Source: a virus
Reading direction: 5' to 3' (one strand)
Length of the DNA stretch: 22,320 bases
Virus genome (UHGV): UHGV-2170153
Part shown: positions 1,419-18,087 of the stretch, piece by piece
How the letters are laid out: the number at the start of each line of letters is the position of its first letter
Position numbering within the stretch: the stretch's first letter is position 1
Translations under genes and position numbers: made by a program
The notes under the pieces: generated by a model
What the model was told of the DNA's origin: nothing
What the model saw: only the letters and a program-made list of their open reading frames with translations
Database searches by the model: none

Positions 1419-2489
1419 TTATTTGATTTCAATTTTGTCCCACTCCCTGCCTCTGTCATCACGATACTGTGATGCCATGGTGTCCGACTTATGCCCGAGA
1501 AGATGTTGAGCAAACTTATCGCTTATCTGCTTCTCATAGAGTCTTGCAGCCAAACTGCGCAACTCGTGAAAGGTAGGCGGATCCCCTTCGAAGGAAAGAC
1601 CTGATGCTTTTCGTGCGCGCATAAAATACCTTGATACTGTGCCGGATGAAAGCGGTTCACGACGAGTAGATGCAATTATGGTTTCTCCGCCAAGAATCTC
1701 TTTGCATTTATCAAGTGTTTCCTTCATTGATATCCCGAGGGCATCAACATGCAATGTTATAGGGATGGCAATTTTTACGCCTGTTTTGCTTTGCTCGACA
1801 TAAAGATATCCATCTACGATATCAGACCACTTCATTTCGCATAAATCACCAACTCGCTGCCCGGTAACAACAGCCAGTTCCATTGCAAGTCTGAGCCAAC
1901 ATGGTGATGATTCTGCTGCTTGATAAATTTTCAGGTATTCGTCAGCCGTAAGTCTTGATCTCCTTACCTCTGATTTTGCTGCGCGAGTGGCAGCGACCGG
2001 GTTTGTTGTTATATGGCCTTCAGCTATTGCCTCTCGGAATGCATCGCTCAGTGTTGATCTGATTAACTTGGCTGATGCCGCCTTGCCCTCGTCTATGTAT
2101 CCATTGAGCATTGCCGCAATTTCTTTTGTGGTGATGTCTTCAAGTGGAGCATCAGGCAGACCTCTCCTTATTGCTTTAATTTTGCTCATGTAATTTATGA
2201 GTGTCTTCTGCTTGATTCCTCTGCTGGCGAGGATTTTTTCGTAGCGATCAAGCCATGAATGTAACGTAACAGAATTATCACTGTTGATTCTCGCTGTCAG
2301 AGGCTTGTGTTTGTGTCCTGAAAATAACTCAATGTTGGCCTGTATAGCTTCAGTGATTGCGATTCGCCTGTCTCTGCCTAATCCAAACTCTTTACCCGTC
2401 CTTGGGTCCCTGTAGCAGTAATATCCATTGTTTCTTATATAAAGGTTAGGGGGTAAATCCCGGCGCTCATGACTTCGCCTTCTTCCCAT
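1419..2489 (-). CDS. int: Integrase, tyrosine recombinase (lambda Int, 356 aa)
   Basis: Translation MGRRRSHERRDLPPNLYIRNNGYYCYRDPRTGKEFGLGRDRRIAITEAIQAN... and C-terminus ...HLLGHKSDTMASQYRDDRGREWDKIEIK match lambda Int; adjacent to att. Confidence 0.97.
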   Translation of the reverse strand: MGRRRSHERRDLPPNLYIRNNGYYCYRDPRTGKEFGLGRDRRIAITEAIQANIELFSGHKHKPLTARINSDNSVTLHSWLDRYEKILASRGIKQKTLINYMSKIKAIRRGLPDAPLEDITTKEIAAMLNGYIDEGKAASAKLIRSTLSDAFREAIAEGHITTNPVAATRAAKSEVRRSRLTADEYLKIYQAAESSPCWLRLAMELAVVTGQRVGDLCEMKWSDIVDGYLYVEQSKTGVKIAIPITLHVDALGISMKETLDKCKEILGGETIIASTRREPLSSGTVSRYFMRARKASGLSFEGDPPTFHELRSLAARLYEKQISDKFAQHLLGHKSDTMASQYRDDRGREWDKIEIK

Positions 2490-3504: not shown

Positions 3505-4801
3505 GGTTAACCTCCTGCGGCGGTTCCGGTAGCGGCATCCAGTGAGTTGCTTGCTCAATACCATTACCCGGCTTAATCGTTGCATCTCCGCGCCGAAAGG
3601 TGCTTCCGGTATAGCGTGCGGAGCATATTAGCGGTTCAACCAGAGAGCTATCGAAATTCACCGAAATAAGCACGTTCTGGCCCTTTTCAGGCATTCGATC
3701 ACTACAGCTTATCCAACCATCCGGAGTTACCGGAGAGTTGCCCGACAGTCTACGCAAAACAGCCTTAACAGCCTCAATACGGTCATCATCGCAATTTTCC
3801 AGCGTATCTATGCGGTCGAGCATGATGATGGCGTTATCAATATCAGGATTGCCAGTCCACTCATTACCGCGATTGGATTCGGCAGCCTGGTTGCCAGATG
3901 CTGGTTGATTGTCGGCTTGGCTATAGCTAACAGCACGGCAGGCATCCTCTACGCCTTTAACTGCATCTGCGCAGTAGTTATAGCGATTGCATTCCACTAA
4001 CTTCTGCTTGAGATTTTCAATTGCTTGCGCGACATCAGCCTGTATTTCTGGAACTGGCGGAACGGCTGTTTGCTCTCGAACGTCATTAGTCGCTATCGGT
4101 TCTGCTGCCAACTGACTGGCATATTTGTTAATGGTAACGATAAGCTCTTGCTCAGCCTCATCCAGACAATCACCGATACCTCGCCTGTCACCGTCAAAAT
4201 CATCGAAATCGGCACGAATCTTGGCAACCTCCCGGATTGCGGACAACACCTCACTAGGAATTACCGGATAGTTGGTTGACGTTTCCGCGATTTCCCGAAA
4301 ATTATTGGTTGACGAATTCTTATTTTCCCGAAAGTTTCCGGACTGAAGCATGGCGGCGCGGCAGGCGTTAAGCGCGTTTTGCACGCGTTTAGCGTTCTGT
4401 ACTTCGTATTTAGGTGCGGCTGCCAATGCCCATAGCCAACCAATTTCATAGCTATCAGCTTTTGATAGAGCACATTCCATTTCCAGTGTTATTTTCTTAG
4501 GTACGAGTTGCCAATCATCTGGCACTACCGGCGCTGGCAGCTCGCGATACAGCGAGATTACACGACGCGGGTCCGCATATTTATCTGGCGGACACTGAAA
4601 TATCTCACCGAAACCATACTTCCTGACATCGCGCAGTTCCTCTTCATCAGTCCATGCCACCGGTTCTGCTTCCAGCGATGCCAGAGCAATCCGTGCCAGC
4701 TCTTCCGCTTCTTCTGCTGGCAGTACAACGTTGCTACCAGGTCCGTATGTTTCGCGCCACTGCTTGATTGTCAGCAGTCGCTCTTTGGTAATAGTGATCA
4801 T
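3497..4801 (-). CDS. Phage protein with C-terminal DUF551-like domain (434 aa)
   Basis: ATG at 4801 with AAGGAA upstream; ATGA overlap with upstream gene stop; C-terminus ...PDGWISCSDRMPEKGQNVLISVNF...ATHWMPLPEPP typical of DUF551 prophage proteins. Confidence 0.75.
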   Translation of the reverse strand: MITITKERLLTIKQWRETYGPGSNVVLPAEEAEELARIALASLEAEPVAWTDEEELRDVRKYGFGEIFQCPPDKYADPRRVISLYRELPAPVVPDDWQLVPKKITLEMECALSKADSYEIGWLWALAAAPKYEVQNAKRVQNALNACRAAMLQSGNFRENKNSSTNNFREIAETSTNYPVIPSEVLSAIREVAKIRADFDDFDGDRRGIGDCLDEAEQELIVTINKYASQLAAEPIATNDVREQTAVPPVPEIQADVAQAIENLKQKLVECNRYNYCADAVKGVEDACRAVSYSQADNQPASGNQAAESNRGNEWTGNPDIDNAIIMLDRIDTLENCDDDRIEAVKAVLRRLSGNSPVTPDGWISCSDRMPEKGQNVLISVNFDSSLVEPLICSARYTGSTFRRGDATIKPGNGIEQATHWMPLPEPPQEVNRG

Positions 4802-5313
4802 GCCGCGTTTCCTTCTTTCTTATTAACAATTACACCGTCATATATTTCATTAAGGTGCCCTCTCAACTCCATGCGCCTTAATGCAGATAACATGTAATCG
4901 CATTCAACCTGCTTATTTCCAGTAAATGGCTTATCGTCAGGATTACCCCAACAGCAATTACCCTTGGGCCACCCATGCACTTTCCGTACTCTTCCGTTAA
5001 CAACGTGAAGTAATCCCCAGCCAGGTGGTAAATCCTCAATTGAAATAATTCCCGGCTCACTAATAAAGAATCGCCAGTCGCCCATTCCAAGAGACGGATT
5101 TTTACGAAAACGCTTTTTTCTATCTGCCAACAAGTCAGCACGAGAACATTTCGCCTCTATCAGGCATGATGCTGAATTTCTGAATCCCATAGCATCTGGC
5201 TGTTCTCCGGTACTGGTTACAGCCATAAAGCGGTCATGAAAACAAACCTTGAACCCGTTGCGCTTAAGGAACTTGTACGCAATCTGACAGAGTTCGCGGT
5301 GTGTTAGCGCCAT
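4798..5313 (-). CDS. Hypothetical phage protein with possible PD-(D/E)xK-like nuclease motif (171 aa)
   Basis: ATG at 5313 with AAGGAGAG upstream (the track's upstream M at 5355 lacks an RBS); motif ...EQPDAMGF...CLIEAKCSRADL suggests D...E-x-K catalytic arrangement (inference by eye). Confidence 0.6.
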   Translation of the reverse strand: MALTHRELCQIAYKFLKRNGFKVCFHDRFMAVTSTGEQPDAMGFRNSASCLIEAKCSRADLLADRKKRFRKNPSLGMGDWRFFISEPGIISIEDLPPGWGLLHVVNGRVRKVHGWPKGNCCWGNPDDKPFTGNKQVECDYMLSALRRMELRGHLNEIYDGVIVNKKEGNAA

Positions 5314-5314
5314 A

Positions 5315-6022
5315 TCACTCTCCTTTGATGCGAATGCCAGTAGCGCGGATTGCATCGATGACTTCAGAAACTTTGTATGCCATTACCGTTTGGTAATCAT
5401 CGTGAAAATCTGTTCGATGAAGCATGCTGCTACGTTCCGGGAGCGTTATTTCCCGAGCATCCAGTTCCTTAACGCGTTCCTCCAGTTCGTAGACCCTGCA
5501 TTGTTCTCTATCATCAATCAGATATAACCCAAGACATTCGCTTTCTACCCAACCGCCAAAATCATGATCGTAACGCTCACATGAAAACTCACCGTCACCG
5601 TCCTTTGTTGGAATGGTGTAACTGTCTAATGGGCCACCGTACGTCGGCACATTTCCTAATGTCGGATGCTCAATCCACATAAAAAATGCACGTCCGGTTA
5701 TTGGGCAAATATCTGGCCGCCATTGGTTACGAACAGCGTTGGTTTCTGATAATTCTTCAGCGTGTTGTTTTACTTCCTCAAGCTCAACACGCAGCTTCCC
5801 TACCGTTAGCGCAATATCCTCGTTCTCCTGATCGCGGCTTTTGATGTATTGCAGGTTTCTTTCCCGTTCATCCAACAATGCCAGCGCGATATCTGGCGAA
5901 AAGTGCTTCATAAAATCGTTAAGCGCATTAATTCGCTGATCGAAAGGCATTACAGGTGCTTCACCAGCAATTTTTGTTTTTTCAGCGATTTCACGAAGCT
6001 TTTGATAATCAATCTTGCTCAC
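5315..6022 (-). CDS. Ead/Ea22-like family protein (235 aa, GTG start)
   Basis: GTG at 6022 with AAAGGAGG 6 nt upstream; N-terminal coiled-coil [17 protein letters not shown]...; resembles Ea22-like proteins of lambdoid b-region (memory, moderate). Confidence 0.65.
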
Positions 6023-6186
6023 TGGTTGCCTCCTTTGCGCCACATCGCATTCAGATATTTGTTTTGATTCACTGACGGAAAAGAATTTCTCTTAAGTAAT
6101 TCCTCTCTCGATGGCATTGGCTTTACGCGTTGGCGAATAATCATTTCTGCCGGAAGAATGCCGGGATTGTATGCAAGTCCTCTCAT
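6019..6186 (-). CDS. Small hypothetical protein (55 aa); alternative start at 6204
   Basis: ATG at 6186 with AGGAA 6 nt upstream; in operon context between coupled genes; short, so uncertain. Confidence 0.4.
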
Positions 6187-6196
6187 GGTAAATTCC

Positions 6197-6490
6197 TCAG
6201 TCATTACTGATAGCGCCATAGCGTGAGCGGTAATTACGCAGGCGCGGGTCAATTTCAGGGAAGTGGGTATATGTGGCTTTGCGGAATGGTCGGATTGATG
6301 TCTGGTAAATTCGCTCGCGTTCTTCTTTCTCTGCAAGCCATATACAATGGCGAAATTCCTTTTCCTCTTTCGTTTCCTGCGGTAGCGACATTATCCGGTC
6401 GTAGTTTTTTCCGAATTTATCCAGCACCTCCAATACGGAATTGCCGGAACAGCGGCGCGGGTCATCCGCACCATACAGAGGCGCTGGCAT
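6197..6490 (-). CDS. Hypothetical phage protein (97 aa)
   Basis: ATG at 6490 with AGGAG 6 nt upstream; basic C-terminal half. Confidence 0.65.
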
Positions 6491-6506: not shown

Positions 6507-7054
6507 TTATTTAGCTAACTTTTTCCAGATCGCTGAAACGTATTTGGCTTGGTGAATGGCATCATCAAGCGCGTTGTGGCGAGTTCCTTTGAATGGCATA
6601 TCTCGCTTAGGGTCGAATCCTATTGCCTTCCCAAGTTCGACGATTGTTCTTACGTCGCGGTCATTCCACCACTGCCACGGAACTGGCTGCCCTGTCAGCG
6701 AATAACTGTTGCGGAGAATAACGCAGTCAAATGATGCTCCATTCCCCCAAACCTGAACGAATTTGTGGTTAGCGTTCTTTATGATGAATTCAGATAACCA
6801 TGAAAGAGCCGTTGAGAGCTCTTGAGTGTTGCTGGTTAGCGATTTTCTGGCTTCTTCACTCTGTTCCATCCACCATAAAATCGTTGAAGCGTCAGGACGC
6901 GCCCGATATCGCATTGATGACTCAAGCGAGATATTTACCGAGAACTCTTCTCCTGTTTCTCCGGTATTCGGGTCAAAGAATACCGCCCAATAGAAATAAC
7001 TGGCGCGTATGGCCCGTTGCCCATTGTTTCAAGGTCAACCATCAAGTGATTCAT
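6507..7054 (-). pseudogene. DnaQ-like (DEDDh) 3'-5' exonuclease interrupted by a frameshift at a G3/C3 homopolymer (~6983..6990)
   Basis: N-terminal 39-aa frame from ATG 7054 (RBS AAGGA) encodes Exo I motif MNHLMVDLETMGNGPYAPVISIG then stops; the rest (AVFFDPNTGE...GNGASFDCVIL...HNALDDAIHQAKYV) continues in the +1 frame with no start codon; one extra G would fuse the frames into ~178 aa. Confidence 0.7.
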
Positions 7055-7062
7055 GTAAGTCC

Positions 7063-7578
7063 TTAAATTGCGTGAATAGCGTGACGAGGGAAGGGGAGAG
7101 TTACTGGTGCAAAGGGGATGTCGTCGTCAAAATCCATAGGTGGTTCGCTGTGATTTCCCTGCTGCTGAGGTTGCTGTCTTTGTTGCTGACCATTATTTCG
7201 CTGAGGTGAAGACTGTTCATTGCCTCCTTGCTTGCCACCAAGCATTTGCATGGTTCCACCAACGCCCACGATGACTTCGGTAGTGAACCGATCCTGTCCG
7301 CTTTGATCCTGCCATTTTCTTGTCCGCAATTTGCCTTCAAGATAAACCTCAGAGCCTTTTCGCAGATATTCGCTGGCAATTTCTGCCAGTTTCCCGCTCA
7401 TTACCACGCGGTGCCACTCCGTCTGCTCCTTTTGCTCTCCAGTTTGCTTATCACGCCATTGTTCTGACGTAGCAACGGTAAGGTTTGCAAATGCCGTTCC
7501 TGATGGTGAATATCTGATTTCTGGATCATGCCCAAGGCGACCAATAATGATCACCTTATTTACGCCTCTGCTTGCCAT
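7063..7578 (-). CDS. ssb: Single-stranded DNA-binding protein (171 aa) with 15-aa extension past the conserved DDDIPF tip
   Basis: [59 protein letters not shown]... OB-fold core closely resembles E. coli SSB; ...[11 protein letters not shown] then continues [15 protein letters not shown] before TAA. Confidence 0.9.
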
Positions 7579-8286
7579 TTATGCCGCCTGTTTTAGCTCG
7601 TTAACTCTGATGTTCATTACCTGAACGCATTTAGCCTGCGCCTCCTCGTTTCCAGCCATTAATTGCCAGTCACGCTGATAACGCTCGATGAGTTTTTTCT
7701 TGTCAGTTTCTGTTGACGCATAATCGCTGAAGTCTTTCAGGATTTGTTCGCAGTCAACCGATGGAGATTTCTGGTTGGTATTTTCTGGTGATGGTTTGTT
7801 ATCTGATGCTGGGATTGCCCATCCCGGCAGTGATGGAGGGAGCCAGTAAAATCCTGTTCCATCCTTCAGTTTTGCCCTGTGCCACCCCTGCTTTTTATCG
7901 AGAGATGTTTGTGCGAAACCTTCCTCAAGGTTATACAGATACCGACCGATTCCCCACTGAACGGCAGCGCGCTTCATTGCACCGGAACGACCACCTTTGA
8001 CGGCTTCTACCTGCGTGTTTTCAGCAGCATCCCATTTGGTTACCCATTCGGAATCAATCTTTATTGATATGCCGCATTCAACGCCGCCGTTGTTGGGAAT
8101 ATCGCGGTATTCATTGCGCCATCCTGCTTTGCCGCAAACATCGTCCAGGCGTTTCATGATTGCCCGGTTCGTGACATAAGCCAGCACCATAGCCCACACT
8201 TTGCCATCGCGTGTTTTACCGCTTTGCTGTATTCGCCATTCGATATCTTCAGGGCTGAATGGCTCATCGAATTTATTCAAATCCAT
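7579..8286 (-). CDS. Rad52/Rad22-family single-strand annealing protein (235 aa)
   Basis: ATG at 8286 with GAGGTGA RBS; N-terminal pattern FSPEDIEWRIQQSGKTRDGKVWAMVLAYVTNRAIMKRLDDVCGKAGWRNEY matches Rad52-type SSAP signature (memory); sits in the lambda bet position next to ssb and exonuclease. Confidence 0.7.
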   Translation of the reverse strand: MDLNKFDEPFSPEDIEWRIQQSGKTRDGKVWAMVLAYVTNRAIMKRLDDVCGKAGWRNEYRDIPNNGGVECGISIKIDSEWVTKWDAAENTQVEAVKGGRSGAMKRAAVQWGIGRYLYNLEEGFAQTSLDKKQGWHRAKLKDGTGFYWLPPSLPGWAIPASDNKPSPENTNQKSPSVDCEQILKDFSDYASTETDKKKLIERYQRDWQLMAGNEEAQAKCVQVMNIRVNELKQAA

Positions 8287-8385
8287 AATTCACCTCAGAA
8301 TGGACACGGCCCAAGGAAATAACGCTGATTTAATACTTCGACTCGGGACAAATTAAGGCATACCCGCATTCCTTCGCGGTCACCA

Positions 8386-8544
8386 TTATGGCGATACCAG
8401 AGAGCTTTCTGCGTGTACATGCGTCTCTGTAACTTGCTCTCCTTCACCGTGGTTGCAAGTGACATGAATATCTCCTTCGTTACCGATTAAATCTTTCATC
8501 TGACGAATGAATTCTTCGTCTGACCAGTTATCTGTAAAACTCAT
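8386..8544 (-). CDS. Small hypothetical protein (52 aa) in the gam position
   Basis: ATG at 8544 overlapping kil stop (ATGA); acidic sequence MSFTDNWSDEEFIRQMKDLIGNEGDIH...; no similarity to lambda Gam recognised. Confidence 0.4.
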   Translation of the reverse strand: MSFTDNWSDEEFIRQMKDLIGNEGDIHVTCNHGEGEQVTETHVHAESSLVSP

Positions 8545-8693
8545 TTCCTGCGATACCACGGAAGGTTGATAGCTGATTTCATCGCTTTATTTGCTTCAAG
8601 CCACATTTTTGAATCACCAATAAAGCTGGCTATTACTGCTTTGTTTTGTGCTGCACGAAGCATCTGGTGATTGATGGCTATTTCATTGCGCAT
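8541..8693 (-). CDS. kil: Kil-like host-killing/FtsZ-inhibitor protein (50 aa)
   Basis: MRNEIAINHQMLRAAQNKAVIASFIGDSKMWLEANKAMKSAINLPWYRRK; shares the SFIGDxKM core with lambda Kil (memory); GAGG RBS; below the ORF-track length cutoff. Confidence 0.6.
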   Translation of the reverse strand: MRNEIAINHQMLRAAQNKAVIASFIGDSKMWLEANKAMKSAINLPWYRRK

Positions 8694-8809
8694 AATAAGA
8701 CCTCAACTCTTTTCCATCCGTCACGTAATTTACGGGTGATTCGTTCAAGTAAAGATTCATTTAGTTGGAAGGCACCCATGCGAGCGCCTCCCGCGATTGC
8801 GTAAATCAT
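8678..8809 (-). CDS. cIII: cIII-like protease (FtsH) inhibitor (43 aa)
   Basis: MIYAIAGGARMGAFQLNESLLERITRKLRDGWKRVEVLLCAMK; conserved core ESLLERITRKLRDGWKR as in lambda CIII; AAGGAA RBS; found by manual translation. Confidence 0.7.
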   Translation of the reverse strand: MIYAIAGGARMGAFQLNESLLERITRKLRDGWKRVEVLLCAMK

Positions 8810-10854: not shown

Positions 10855-11190
10855 TCAAATAAGTGGTTTGCTGCCTAATTTCATTTTTTGGCGACCAACA
10901 CAAGTCACCCCCATTTCACTGCGTGGCTTGCGGTAGTAAATACGGTTCTGTTTACGCTCGACTTCTTCTGCCTTCTTGCAGCGAAGGCTTCCGAGTGATG
11001 CTGCTTTTTCAGAAAGGCTTAAACGCTTTCTTGGGGCTTCCTGAACAGGTTCCTCACTGTCTGTGCCGAAGATCGAATCGATGATGTTGCATATAGCATC
11101 ACGCTCGATAGCCAGCTTTCTGCGCCGCTCATGACGGCGAGTTTTGGCATTTCCTGCAAATGTTGATTTCCCGTACACGATTACCGTCAT
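10855..11190 (-). CDS. N: Antitermination protein N with P22-type arginine-rich motif (111 aa)
   Basis: MTVIVYGKSTFAGNAKTRRHERRRKLAIERD... (ARM GNAKTRRHERRRKLAIER as in P22 gp24); C-terminus ...YYRKPRSEMGVTCVGRQKMKLGSKPLI resembles lambda N; GAGGAAAA RBS; track start at 11274 lacks an RBS. Confidence 0.85.
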   Translation of the reverse strand: MTVIVYGKSTFAGNAKTRRHERRRKLAIERDAICNIIDSIFGTDSEEPVQEAPRKRLSLSEKAASLGSLRCKKAEEVERKQNRIYYRKPRSEMGVTCVGRQKMKLGSKPLI

Positions 11191-11309
11191 GATGTTTTCC
11201 TCATGTGAAATGGCTTTGGTGGTGATGCGCCAGATGCTGATCTTCTGGTTGCTGTCGTTGCAGCTGCAATTCACATCACCGCCAAACCCATCTCGTTTGG
11301 TATCTGTTT

Positions 11310-11536: not shown

Positions 11537-12190
11537 TTAACTAAATGTCTCTTCAGGCCACTGGCTGGCGATAACTTTCCCTACTACGGAACAGCTATCA
11601 TTGCATGGGATCATTGGATATTGCGGGTTTAGTGGTTGTAGGAACACCTGACCGCTATCCCTGATCAGTTTCTTGAAGGTAAACTCGTCACCACCAAGTC
11701 TGGCTATGCAGAAATCACCTGGCTCAACAGCCTGCTCAGGGTCAACGAGAATTAACATCCCGTCAGGAAAGCTTGGCTTGGATCCTGTTGGTGCGGTCAT
11801 GGAATTACCTTCAACTTCAAGCCAAAACGCACAATCACTGGCTTTTTTGGTTGTGCTGACCCATCTCTCCGCATCGCCTTTGGTAAAGGTTCTAAGCTCA
11901 GGCGAGAACATCCCGGCCTGAACATGAGAAAAAACAGGGTACTCATATTGTTTTTTAACGGGGGCAGATGAGTATTCGCCAACAGGTGAAAATGTACCGT
12001 CGTGGTTGAATGAGACGTTATCAATACCAAGGTATTTAAACACCACACCAATCTCGTCAAGAGATGGATGACGAGATCCGCGCAACCAGTGACCAATTCC
12101 ACCCTGCGTCATACCAAGCTCTTCAGCTAACTTCTCTTGAGTTATGCCGAGCTCTTTCATTCTGGATCTAGCCAGTTCATACCATTTCAT
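11537..12190 (-). CDS. cI: CI repressor, chimeric: heterologous HTH N-terminal domain fused to lambda-type C-terminal dimerisation/autocleavage domain (218 aa)
   Basis: C-terminal ~120 aa nearly identical to lambda cI ([37 protein letters not shown]...[11 protein letters not shown]); N-terminal [36 protein letters not shown] is a different HTH; start chosen at 12190 (AAGGG 7 nt upstream; 12196 also possible). Confidence 0.9.
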
Positions 12191-12252
12191 TTTCATACCC
12201 TTATTATTACGCTCTGTACTAAAACCATCCATGCACAAGATGTATTTTTTGT

Positions 12253-12281
12253 TTGCATTCCAAAAGTACATATCGTATTAT
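12253..12281 (+). promoter_or_regulatory. pR promoter candidate (-35 TTGCAT, 17-bp spacer, -10 TATTAT) with overlapping operator-like repeats
   Basis: TTGCAT 12253..12258 and TATTAT 12276..12281, ~20 nt upstream of the cro RBS. Confidence 0.6.
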
Positions 12282-14966: not shown

Positions 14967-15000
14967 CAGGCCTGCTGGTAATCGCAGGCCTTTTTATTTG
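14967..15000 (+). terminator. Intrinsic terminator (tR2-like)
   Basis: AGGCCTGC-tggtaatc-GCAGGCCT followed by TTTTTATTTG. Confidence 0.8.
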
Positions 15001-15015
15001 GGGGAGAGGGAAGTC

Positions 15016-15456
15016 ATGAAAAAACTAACCTTTGAAATTCGATCTCCAGCACATCAGCAAAACGCTATTCACGCGGTACAGCAAATTCTTCCAGACCCAA
15101 CCAAACCAATCGTAGTAACCATTCAGGAACGCAACCGCAGCTTAGACCAAAATCGGAAGCTTTGGGCTTGCCTTGGTGACGTCTCTCGTCAGGTTGAATG
15201 GCATGGTCGCTGGCTGGATGCAGAAAGCTGGAAGTGTGTGTTTACCGCAGCATTAAAGCAGCAGGACGTTGTTCCTAACCTTGCCGGGAATGGCTTTGTG
15301 GTAATAGGCCAGTCAACCAGCAGGATGCGTGTAAGCGAATTTGCGGAGCTATTAGAGCTTATACAGGCATTCGGTACAGAGCGTGGCGTTAAGTGGTCAG
15401 ACGAAGCGCGACTGGCTCTCGAATGGAAAGCGCGATGGGGAGATCGGGCTGCATGA
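15016..15456 (+). CDS. ninB: NinB/Orf recombination protein (146 aa)
   Basis: MKKLTFEIRSPAHQQNAIHAVQQILPDPTKPIVVTIQERNRSLDQNRKLWACLGDVSRQVEWHG... matches lambda NinB. Confidence 0.92.
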   Translation: MKKLTFEIRSPAHQQNAIHAVQQILPDPTKPIVVTIQERNRSLDQNRKLWACLGDVSRQVEWHGRWLDAESWKCVFTAALKQQDVVPNLAGNGFVVIGQSTSRMRVSEFAELLELIQAFGTERGVKWSDEARLALEWKARWGDRAA

Positions 15457-17438: not shown

Positions 17439-17728
17439 TGGCTAAACTACGCAAAGAAGCGCGCGGCAGAGAATGCCAGGTACGTATTTACGGCGTATGC
17501 AATGGCAACCCTGAAACTACAGTTCTGGCACATTACCGGATGGCTGGAATTTGCGGAACGGGAATGAAGCCTGACGACCTGATCGGAGCATGGGCTTGTA
17601 GCGCGTGTCACGATGAAATCGACCGACGCACCCATAAACTCGACAACAAAGACGCCAGACTTTACCACCTGGAAGGCGTGATCAGGACGCAGGCGATACT
17701 GCTGAAGGAGGGGAAGATTAAGCCATGA
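17438..17728 (+). CDS. Cys-rich nin-region protein, DUF1364-like (96 aa)
   Basis: MAKLRKEARGRECQVRIYGVCNGNPETTVLAHYRMAGICGTGMKPDDLIGAWACSACHDEID...; family call from memory, moderate. Confidence 0.7.
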   Translation: MAKLRKEARGRECQVRIYGVCNGNPETTVLAHYRMAGICGTGMKPDDLIGAWACSACHDEIDRRTHKLDNKDARLYHLEGVIRTQAILLKEGKIKP

Positions 17729-18087
17729 ACGAATATCAGTTTGTGCTTCCATACCCGCCGTCGGTGAACACCTACTGGCGAAGACGGGGAAGCCAATACT
17801 ACATCAGCGATAAAGGCCAGAAATACCGAAAAGACGTTCAGCAAATCATCCGCCAACTTAAGTTAGACATTTTCACCAAATCACGACTCCGCATCAAAGT
17901 CATCGCAGACGTTCCAGACTCCCGCCGCCGCGACCTCGACAACATCCTGAAAGGTTTACTCGACTCCCTTATCCACGCCGGATTTGCGGAAGACGACGAG
18001 CAATTCGATGACATTCGCGTAATTCGTGGTGTGAAAGTACCAGGCGGACGGCTTGGAATAAAAATCACCGAACTGGAGAACGCATGA
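17725..18087 (+). CDS. rusA: Holliday-junction resolvase RusA (120 aa)
   Basis: LPYPPSVNTYWRRRG...DSRRRDLDNILKGLLDSLIHAGFAEDDEQFDDIRVIRGVKVPGGRLGIKITE matches the RusA family. Confidence 0.9.
   Translation: MNEYQFVLPYPPSVNTYWRRRGSQYYISDKGQKYRKDVQQIIRQLKLDIFTKSRLRIKVIADVPDSRRRDLDNILKGLLDSLIHAGFAEDDEQFDDIRVIRGVKVPGGRLGIKITELENA

Follow-up and report, generated by a model that had tools for sequence, protein, structure and literature searches.

The window, by which we mean the whole 22,320-nt stretch of DNA that was analysed, contains a cluster of recombination genes that all lie on the minus strand (Table 1). In order, these are kil, small ORFs, a Rad52-type annealing protein (SSAP), an SSB, a DexA/DnaQ-like exonuclease, abc2 and a DUF2737 gene. 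The genes come after cIII (8678-8809) and kil, which in lambda is the position of gam-bet-exo, as the first-pass annotation had proposed. The upstream and downstream borders are formed by kil and the DUF2737-type gene, respectively, and the gene order at the latter is shared by P22, Sf6, HK75, epsilon34 and mEp235. Spacing within the cluster is tight, with 8 nt between ssb and the exonuclease gene and 16 nt between the exonuclease stop and abc2. This arrangement is already known, having appeared in the epsilon34 genome paper of 2008 (PMC2629481) and in a 2025 survey of lambdoid Rec modules (PMC12315714).

Table 1. Features of the recombination module and its borders, with positions in the window.
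Feature	Position	Strand	Evidence or remark
kil	8541-8693	-	PF06301, E=5e-20; conserved upstream border of module
52-aa acidic ORF, P22 arf position	8386-8544	-	phrog_2123, E=1e-40
56-aa basic ORF	8295-8465	-	phrog_1723, E=9e-36
SSAP, 235 aa	7579-8286	-	PF04098 (Rad52_Rad22), E=5e-26
SSAP N-terminal annealing domain, Rad52/Sak type	about 7879-8277	-
SSAP C-terminal three-helix domain, P22 Erf type	7582-7818	-
Phage-encoded bacterial-type SSB, 171 aa	7063-7578	-	PF00436, E=2e-38; TIGR00621, 184.7 bits
SSB DFDDDIPF	7111-7134	-	alignment with related-phage SSBs
SSB 15-aa C-terminal extension after DFDDDIPF	7066-7110	-
Exonuclease N-terminal fragment, 39 codons	6935-7054	-	PF16473 model positions 1-23, E=5e-6
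Exonuclease Exo I motif, Asp7	7034-7036	-	in 39-codon fragment; sequence read directly
Exonuclease Exo I motif, Glu9	7028-7030	-	in 39-codon fragment; sequence read directly
Exonuclease 1-bp deletion site	6986-6988	-	GGG here, GGGG in intact genes
Exonuclease C-terminal fragment, 135 codons	6507-6914	-	PF16473 model positions 47-177, E=1e-49
Exonuclease Exo II, Asp110	6726-6728	-	in 135-codon fragment
Exonuclease Exo III, His160	6576-6578	-	in 135-codon fragment
Exonuclease Exo III, Asp165	6561-6563	-	in 135-codon fragment
abc2, P22-type anti-RecBCD (RecBCD-hijacking) protein, 97 aa	6197-6490	-	PF11043, E=7e-62; phrog_656
DUF2737-type small gene (P22 orf56 equivalent)	6019-6186	-	phrog_1117, E=1e-36; conserved downstream border
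Exonuclease residues are numbered as in the intact 182-aa protein.

The first-pass annotation had assigned the SSAP to the Rad52 family, and an HMM check agreed: the protein scored 91.9 bits against PF04098 (cut-off 20.3), aligned to model positions 7-153 of 153, and gave no RecT or Erf Pfam match at E<=0.01. An AF2 model of the SSAP (mean pLDDT 89.4) was compared with the PDB using Foldseek, and the best eight matches were to Mgm101 (9yi9) and human RAD52 (5jrb, 8rjw), each with a probability of 1.00 and E values of 1e-4 to 2e-3 at modest TM-scores of 0.24-0.50. As modelled, the N-terminal domain is a Rad52 fold (a beta-sheet packed against a helix, plus a hairpin), which places the protein within the Rad52 family. 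The remainder of the SSAP has another affinity: residues 157-235 (79 aa) are 63% identical to residues 134-205 of P22 Erf (E=2e-30), and the N-terminal domains of the two proteins are unrelated. This Erf domain swap was described together with the epsilon34 module (PMC2629481). In a protein library clustered at 50% identity, the SSAP matched the representatives of 8674 clusters, and among the 150 listed nearly all cover only residues 1 to ~170. We infer that the C-terminal domain may contact Abc2-RecBCD; alternatively, its partner could be the host SSB or another host factor.

The dedicated SSB of the first-pass annotation was likewise confirmed, and it is of the bacterial type. Aligned with its counterparts in related phages, it has the DDDIPF motif internally, 15 residues short of the C-terminus, and a central region of the Sf6/E. 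coli-prophage kind, not that of mEp235.

Two small ORFs lie between kil and the SSAP gene. The first-pass annotation had reported no Gam homologue and only an unrelated 52-aa acidic protein in the gam position. The first statement is literally true: Gam, lambda-Exo, RecE and YqaJ families were found in none of the 30 ORF products scanned with Pfam. The 52-aa ORF has no Pfam match, which indicates that it is not Gam. However, the first statement misleads because an anti-RecBCD gene, abc2, adjoins the exonuclease gene, and the second overlooks the 56-aa ORF, which overlaps the 52-aa ORF by 80 nt and belongs to a different phage protein family. NCBIfam gave no match for the SSAP, the exonuclease, Abc2 or the small ORFs. 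The 52-aa ORF begins with an ATG that overlaps the kil stop codon (ATGA), and it resembles P22 Arf in position, size, charge and possession of an SDEEFI motif. Homology to Arf could not be demonstrated (hhalign probability 15.8%, no PF17585 match), and we retain the ORF only as a positional analogue. One database source names a homologue of this ORF "accessory recombination function protein". The 56-aa ORF gave no alignment with Arf; at related loci, variable sites favour the third positions of its frame.

Directly downstream of the exonuclease gene is abc2, whose product and P22 Abc2 are 92% identical across 97 aa. The presence of abc2 beside an SSAP with an Erf-type C-terminus therefore indicates a P22-type, RecBCD-hijacking module. 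In the published model, Abc2 hijacks RecBCD, and phages with Abc2 apparently have no exonuclease of their own (PMC9836394). Because abc2 is in the module, resection would be supplied by RecBCD according to the P22 model (PMC9836394, PMC5928155), and dependence of the module on RecBCD and Abc2 is what that model predicts here. Recognition of abc2 thus removes the apparent paradox of an SSAP that lacks a 5'-3' exonuclease. We also considered a 185-aa ORF (4798-5355), in which a PD...ExK-like motif can be discerned by eye, as a candidate hidden nuclease partner. It had no Pfam or PDB sequence match, the PHROG families that it matched have no assigned function, and its single-sequence AF2 model reached a pLDDT of 53. 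Our main reading, to which we give a probability of roughly 0.8, is that the locus represents a recombination module, carried by a lambdoid prophage that lies beside the host gene ybhC, and that this module is of the P22 type and the epsilon34/mEp235 subtype, with RecBCD co-opted and the exonuclease an optional cassette.

By sequence comparison, the exonuclease is a DEDDh enzyme of the Rv2179c/T4-DexA family (PF16473), which is not a 5'-3' class, and its 3'-5' polarity is predicted from this family membership only. PADLOC matched it weakly to a generic DEDDh profile (E=2e-4). The earlier description of a DnaQ-like 3'-5' exonuclease was therefore right about the family, but the gene is not intact. 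When it is aligned with its counterparts in E. coli AP021890 and phage mEp235, which are intact and encode 182 aa, the gene in the window has one G too few in a GGGG run, and this shifts the frame. Because of this 1-bp deletion, the catalytic residues fall in two ORFs of different frame, with D7 and E9 apart from D110, H160 and D165, so that the five DEDDh residues are not carried by one polypeptide. The N-terminal fragment on its own scored 26.7 bits against PF16473, just below the 27-bit cut-off. As the frameshift parts Asp7/Glu9 from Asp110/His160/Asp165, the exonuclease of the present prophage is most probably inactive. Programmed frameshifting at the split was rejected, since there is no slippery heptamer and GGGG is in frame in all 151 E. 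coli and 62 viral relatives.

We also considered whether the missing G reflects faulty sequencing or assembly of the homopolymer, such that the real prophage encodes an intact exonuclease. A single base is changed, and it lies within the GGGG run. None of the 151 complete E. coli genomes that carry the exonuclease stretch has the deletion allele, and exact-pattern scans detected it in 0 GTDB species-representative genomes and 0 IMG/VR contigs, whereas 62 IMG/VR contigs have the intact allele; among the genomes and contigs scanned, the frameshift is thus private to the present sequence. Coverage of the window by any one complete E. coli genome reaches 55% at most. The rest of the exonuclease sequence is 98-99% identical to intact copies and has no more lesions. 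However, the reading frames of the SSAP, SSB, abc2, ybhC and int are full-length, which gives no sign of error-prone sequence. Furthermore, decay is common in prophage accessory genes, and databases hold other disrupted variants of this gene. We therefore treat a homopolymer error as a distinct possibility, though not the reading we favour.

The distribution of the exonuclease gene bears on its place in the module. Of 5426 complete E. coli genomes, 401 have the SSAP gene; the exonuclease stretch was detected in 151 genomes, and the entire module with the exonuclease in 140. The exonuclease thus accompanies about a third of the SSAP genes (~140-151 of 401). Phages differ in what lies between ssb and abc2: HK75 has nothing there, Sf6 has an HNH gene, mEp235 and epsilon34 have the exonuclease, and Bas106 has the exonuclease together with an HNH gene. 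The exonuclease is also absent from N7, IME10 and ECP1. Homologues that are ~60% identical adjoin xis/int at loci where neither an SSAP nor an SSB is close by. Where the gene does occur in the module, its location is fixed: at every sufficiently flanked locus among 62 viral contigs, all of them closely related and sharing the exact 31-mer used to select them, it is packed tightly between ssb (or HNH) and abc2. By an argument made previously (PMC12315714), such a constant slot is as expected of a true module member. DnaQ-like nucleases are listed among lambdoid Rec-module genes in the same survey, which judges that the DnaQ gene of epsilon34 probably belongs to such a module.

These data weigh on the claim from the first-pass annotation that the 3'-5' exonuclease takes the place of a 5'-3' enzyme as partner of the SSAP. 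In its fullest form, the SSAP, SSB and exonuclease would be a self-contained Red-like system, in which the exonuclease is a dedicated partner that docks on the SSB instead of resecting. Escherichia coli ExoI, a 3'-5' exonuclease of the DnaQ fold, docks on the SSB tail and offers a precedent. The tight packing on both sides of the exonuclease gene, its constant position in the viral contigs and the view of the epsilon34 gene as a likely module member (PMC12315714) are also consistent with such a partnership. However, abc2 accounts for resection, approximately two thirds of E. coli modules with SSAP, SSB and abc2 lack the exonuclease, as do HK75, N7 and IME10, and related exonucleases exist without a neighbouring SSAP or SSB. 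In addition, the gene is broken in the window, and the DDDIPF of the SSB is internal rather than a free C-terminus. We conclude that a self-contained Red-like system is highly improbable and that the partnership claim is not supported, because abc2 is present and the exonuclease is both dispensable and frameshifted.

What the intact protein does is a separate matter. The intact homologue matches T4 DexA (PDB 8KEL) with E=1e-13 over residues 4-161, at 31% identity by tblastn. DexA acts on DNA as a 3'-5' exonuclease and contributes to recombination in intron homing, and EcD (HREX), an E. coli DexA homologue, is reported to cut 5hmC DNA and protect against T4 (PMC12153337). By homology, then, the intact exonuclease may serve a DexA-like accessory or exclusion function and merely be housed in the module rather than be a recombination gene; when T-even phages superinfect, it might destroy their 5hmC DNA, as is reported for EcD, or it might scavenge nucleotides. 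HREX proteins are defined as DexA homologues that lack the tetramer residue D90 and have the 5hmC-recognition residues W152 and D169. In the 8KEL alignment, W152 has its equivalent in W130 and D90 stands opposite a gap, which agrees with an accessory function, as does the behaviour of the gene as a mobile, optional cassette found in many other contexts. In contrast, D169 aligns to F147, adjacent to D148. That EcD is the same protein was rejected: the EcD primers give the start MIDTET, and EcD was absent from the best 120 exonuclease homologues and from every fetched locus. Moreover, a fixed site inside the Rec module of close relatives suits a role in recombination equally well. We consider an accessory function of this kind unlikely. 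Less likely still, in our estimation, is that the intact exonuclease is a working part of the Abc2-RecBCD-SSAP pathway. In that capacity it might remove 3' tails or flaps that lack homology, making Rad52-type annealed products fit for ligation or extension, and the extended tail of the phage SSB might recruit it; if true, this would be a nuclease-SSAP partnership with polarity opposite to that of lambda Red. Others have already asked what an intact DnaQ/DexA-like nuclease contributes to lambdoid Rec modules.

Based on the P22-type reading, we propose the following mechanism for the module. Abc2 would bind RecC, and RecBCD would resect ends while ignoring Chi, leaving 3' single strands, an established action of P22 Abc2 that we extend to the present module from the 92% identity. 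The Erf-type C-terminal helical domain may then bring the SSAP to the single-stranded DNA, a recruitment that we infer, after which the Rad52-like N-terminal ring would anneal complementary strands. The phage SSB would coat single-stranded DNA and, as the Sak4-SSB pair of HK620 suggests, help the SSAP; the paper that compares the P22, HK620 and lambda modules also reports that an SSB stimulates an SSAP (PMC5928155). The 3'-5' DEDDh exonuclease would be an optional accessory cassette and not the resection partner. Taken together, the outcome is mainly corrective: the arrangement is common and also found in several named phages, and the gene that makes the cluster look odd is optional, and broken in the present copy.

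Comparison with known systems places the module most closely beside those of epsilon34 (genes 33-36), mEp235 and mEpX2, whose gene content and order match those of the window: small ORF(s), a 235-aa Rad52-type SSAP that ends in an Erf-type domain, SSB, a 182-aa DEDDh exonuclease, abc2 and DUF2737, at 86-92% DNA identity over the module. The window differs from all three in the private 1-bp deletion in its exonuclease gene and from mEp235 in the Sf6/E. coli-prophage central region of its SSB. P22 (c3-kil-arf-erf-abc1-abc2-orf56) uses the same pL operon site, from kil to orf56/DUF2737. The two modules share Abc2 and the SSAP C-terminal domain, at 92% and 63% identity, and neither has a phage 5'-3' exonuclease or Gam. 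However, the annealing domain is of the Rad52/Sak type in the window and of the Erf type in P22, the window has no abc1 homologue, with ssb and the exonuclease gene filling the abc1 slot, and the 52-aa and 56-aa ORFs stand in place of arf.

The HK620 module (hkaM-sak4-ssb-abc2) also combines an SSAP, a cognate phage SSB and abc2 at the same operon position, and its SSB stimulates its SSAP experimentally (PMC5928155). In contrast to the window, HK620 has a RecA-like Sak4 as its SSAP and an SSB of the non-canonical DUF669 type, and it has no exonuclease. The intact exonuclease resembles T4 DexA (8KEL) in having the DEDDh residues D7, E9, D110, H160 and D165, whereas it is only about 31% identical, is shorter (182 versus 227 aa) and lacks the extra loops of DexA, and the gene in the window is split. 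Finally, lambda Red/Gam (gam-bet-exo) occupies the same position after cIII-kil, and both SSAPs belong to the wider Rad52 superfamily. Unlike lambda, the window lacks lambda Exo (5'-3') and Gam and gave no Bet/RecT-family match, and host RecBCD would be co-opted through Abc2 instead of blocked.

The recombination module is part of the early-left (pL) operon of a lambdoid prophage and is encoded on the minus strand. [quoted passage not shown] Its closest phage relatives are the mosaics N7, HK97, mEp235 and HK022, each of which covers at most 51% of the window, and none of the complete E. coli genomes compared with the window covers more than 55%. Beyond the module, NinB and RusA add to the recombination functions of this prophage. 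Visual inspection also pointed to a PD...(E)xK-like motif (PDAMGF...LIEAKCS) in a 185-aa ORF, which found no match in Pfam or by PDB sequence search and whose single-sequence AF2 model (pLDDT 53) is too poor to judge a nuclease fold.

Features of the prophage and its recombination module, in window coordinates
Feature	Position	Strand	Remarks
ybhC	1-1284	minus	host gene, 427 aa, intact
int	1419-2489		followed by xis, DUF551 protein, Ea22, recombination module, kil, cIII
185-aa ORF	4798-5355	minus	phrog_9263 and phrog_631
abc2	6197-6490	minus	97 aa; Pfam 'Bacteriophage P22 anti-RecBCD protein 2', E=7e-62
Exonuclease, C-terminal ORF	6507-6914	minus	135 aa; Rv2179c-like DEDDh 3'-5' exonuclease domain, E=1e-49, only from model position 47
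Exonuclease, N-terminal ORF	6935-7054	minus	first 39 codons, Asp7-x-Glu9 motif; other frame than 135-aa ORF
ssb	7063-7578	minus	bacterial-type SSB, 171 aa
SSB C-terminal stretch	7066-7134	minus	DFDDDIPF plus 15-aa extension
SSAP gene	7579-8286	minus	235 aa; Pfam Rad52_Rad22, whole model, E=5e-26
ORF56	8295-8465	minus	56 aa, basic; PHROG family different from that of ORF52
ORF52	8386-8544	minus	52 aa, acidic; ATG overlaps kil stop; position of P22 arf
N	10855-11274		after cIII
cI-type repressor	11537-12271		after N
cII, O, DnaC-like loader, NinB, Dam, NinX, antirepressor, RusA, Q		plus
NinB	14998-15456	plus	Orf-family recombination mediator, nin region; E=1e-54
RusA	17725-18087	plus	Holliday-junction resolvase, nin region; E=1e-16

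The single-strand annealing protein (SSAP) belongs to the Rad52 family, as the first-pass annotation had proposed. It matched neither RecT nor Erf in Pfam, and its AlphaFold2 model, built from 51 diverse homologues (mean pLDDT 89.4), found yeast Mgm101 and human RAD52 as the only significant matches among solved structures. Over its last 79 residues the protein shares 63% identity with the C-terminal domain of P22 Erf, and the N-terminal domains are unrelated; in the model, residues 179-234 form a separate three-helix unit at the C-terminus. The SSAP is a chimera that carries an Erf-type C-terminal domain on a different N-terminal domain, and this 'Erf domain swap' has already been noted for phage epsilon34 (PMC2629481). 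A search with the SSAP against 1.8 billion proteins, each representing one 50%-identity cluster, returned 8674 matches; among the 150 listed, nearly all cover only residues 1 to ~170, with tails that vary.

The observation that the module lacks a Gam homologue is literally true, but the RecBCD problem is handled otherwise, through abc2, which begins 16 nt past the exonuclease stop and encodes a product 92% identical to P22 Abc2. In P22, Abc2 binds RecC, and RecBCD no longer responds to Chi but still resects DNA, onto which the phage recombinase is proposed to be loaded instead of RecA (PMC9836394). Because of the 92% identity of Abc2 and the Erf-type C-terminal domain of the SSAP, a P22-like scheme is the best-supported mechanism for this module. 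From such close homology, Abc2 would bind RecC and yield a Chi-blind, resecting RecBCD; we infer that the SSAP would be recruited via its Erf-type domain, and the phage SSB may assist it, by analogy with the Sak4-SSB pair of HK620 (PMC5928155). With abc2 present, an SSAP without a 5'-3' exonuclease is therefore no paradox.

Two small ORFs lie between kil and the SSAP gene, ORF52 in the gam position; they share 80 nt, read in different frames. ORF52 has an SDEEFI motif in common with P22 Arf, but a profile comparison gave only 15.8% probability and the Pfam Arf family was not matched, so we treat it as a positional analogue. ORF56 has at least as good a claim to be a real gene, because variable sites across 36 related loci favour the third positions of its frame. 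Public databases also contain many 82-aa fusions, in which the start of ORF52 is joined to the end of ORF56 at differing junctions.

Profile search confirmed the proposed SSB. Since a 15-aa extension follows DFDDDIPF, the usual partner-binding tip does not lie at its C-terminus. In phages Sf6 and Bas106, an HNH endonuclease gene is found exactly at the point between DIPF and the extension (L003 1145-1700; L006 1390-1480); the SSB there terminates in ...DIPF and the HNH protein terminates with the same 14 residues (46 nt identical). This pattern resembles a homing-type insertion into ssb at its 3' end.

The proposed DnaQ-like 3'-5' exonuclease held as to family, but the gene is split by a frameshift. 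An intact homologue matched T4 DexA (PDB 8KEL) with E=1e-13, and DexA is a 3'-5' exonuclease (PMC12153337), so the protein did not classify as a 5'-3' enzyme. Aligned to the intact 549-bp genes found in E. coli AP021890 and phage mEp235, the window gene lacks a single G in a GGGG run at 6986-6988 and is otherwise 98-99% identical. As written, the sequence is predicted to encode no active exonuclease, because the Exo I acidic residues are separated from Asp110, His160 and Asp165 (numbered as in the intact 182-aa protein). All 151 complete E. coli genomes that carry the exonuclease stretch are free of the deletion, and an exact 30-mer spanning it had zero matches in GTDB species-representative genomes and IMG/VR; the matching intact 31-mer occurs in 62 IMG/VR contigs. 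The deletion is therefore private to the window sequence, either as a real inactivating mutation or as a homopolymer error. In three database variants (P0012, P0013 and P0014), the first ~32 residues are swapped for unrelated sequence, always immediately before GETGEEF, a sign that the 5' end of the gene may have been disrupted or rearranged independently in other lineages of the sequence.

Comparison across phages and genomes does not support the exonuclease as the nuclease partner of the SSAP, which the first-pass annotation took it to be. What lies between ssb and abc2 varies: HK75 has nothing there, and neither, by annotation, do N7, IME10 and ECP1; Sf6 has an HNH endonuclease; mEp235, mEpX2, epsilon34 and g341c have the exonuclease; and Bas106 has both. 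Among complete E. coli genomes, 401 carry the SSAP gene, 151 the exonuclease stretch and 140 the whole module with exonuclease (about one third). Counting the other way, in the 62 viral contigs, which were picked by the exact 31-mer and are close relatives, the allele lies between ssb (or HNH) and abc2 at every locus with sufficient flank. Homologues of ~60% identity lie beside xis/int in other enterobacterial prophages, as free 189-190-aa genes directly upstream of xis/int (L011 4001-4573; L014 4001-4570), and the same DexA/Rv2179c-like domain forms the C-terminus of an 823-aa protein in mEp460_ev081 (L008 1578-4049); neither SSAP nor SSB was found near these three loci. The domain adjoins a DNA polymerase in a Rhodobacter phage, the family occurs in 1855 phage records, among them all T4-like phages, and sporadic DnaQ-type genes near int have been noted (PMC12315714). 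We read the exonuclease as an optional cassette of the module and not as its resection nuclease.

By analogy, the intact enzyme might possibly trim 3' ends, like DexA in T4 intron homing, or exclude 5hmC phages, an activity reported for EcD, a DexA homologue of E. coli (PMC12153337) that differs in sequence from the window exonuclease. 'Bacterial' DexA homologues (HREX), which reach their highest abundance in Escherichia, Citrobacter and Klebsiella, were proposed as an anti-T4 defence in that paper, which does not address whether they are prophage genes and in whose text the word 'prophage' is absent. All DexA homologues that we located in such genomes lie within prophages, and 'bacterial' HREX genes may largely be prophage genes.

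Taken together, the first-pass annotation correctly recognized a known, common module type, and its omission of abc2 and of the frameshift changes what that recognition means. The arrangement was already in print: the 2008 genome paper on epsilon34 has exactly the gene set found here, naming Abc2 together with a 'possible endonuclease ... unusual in this context', an SSB of bacterial type and an Erf-like protein whose similarity is confined to the C-terminus (PMC2629481). Compared with the P22 map (c3-kil-arf-erf-abc1-abc2-orf56), the window reads cIII-kil-ORF52/ORF56-SSAP-ssb-exonuclease (frameshifted)-abc2-DUF2737, with the same borders and the middle exchanged.
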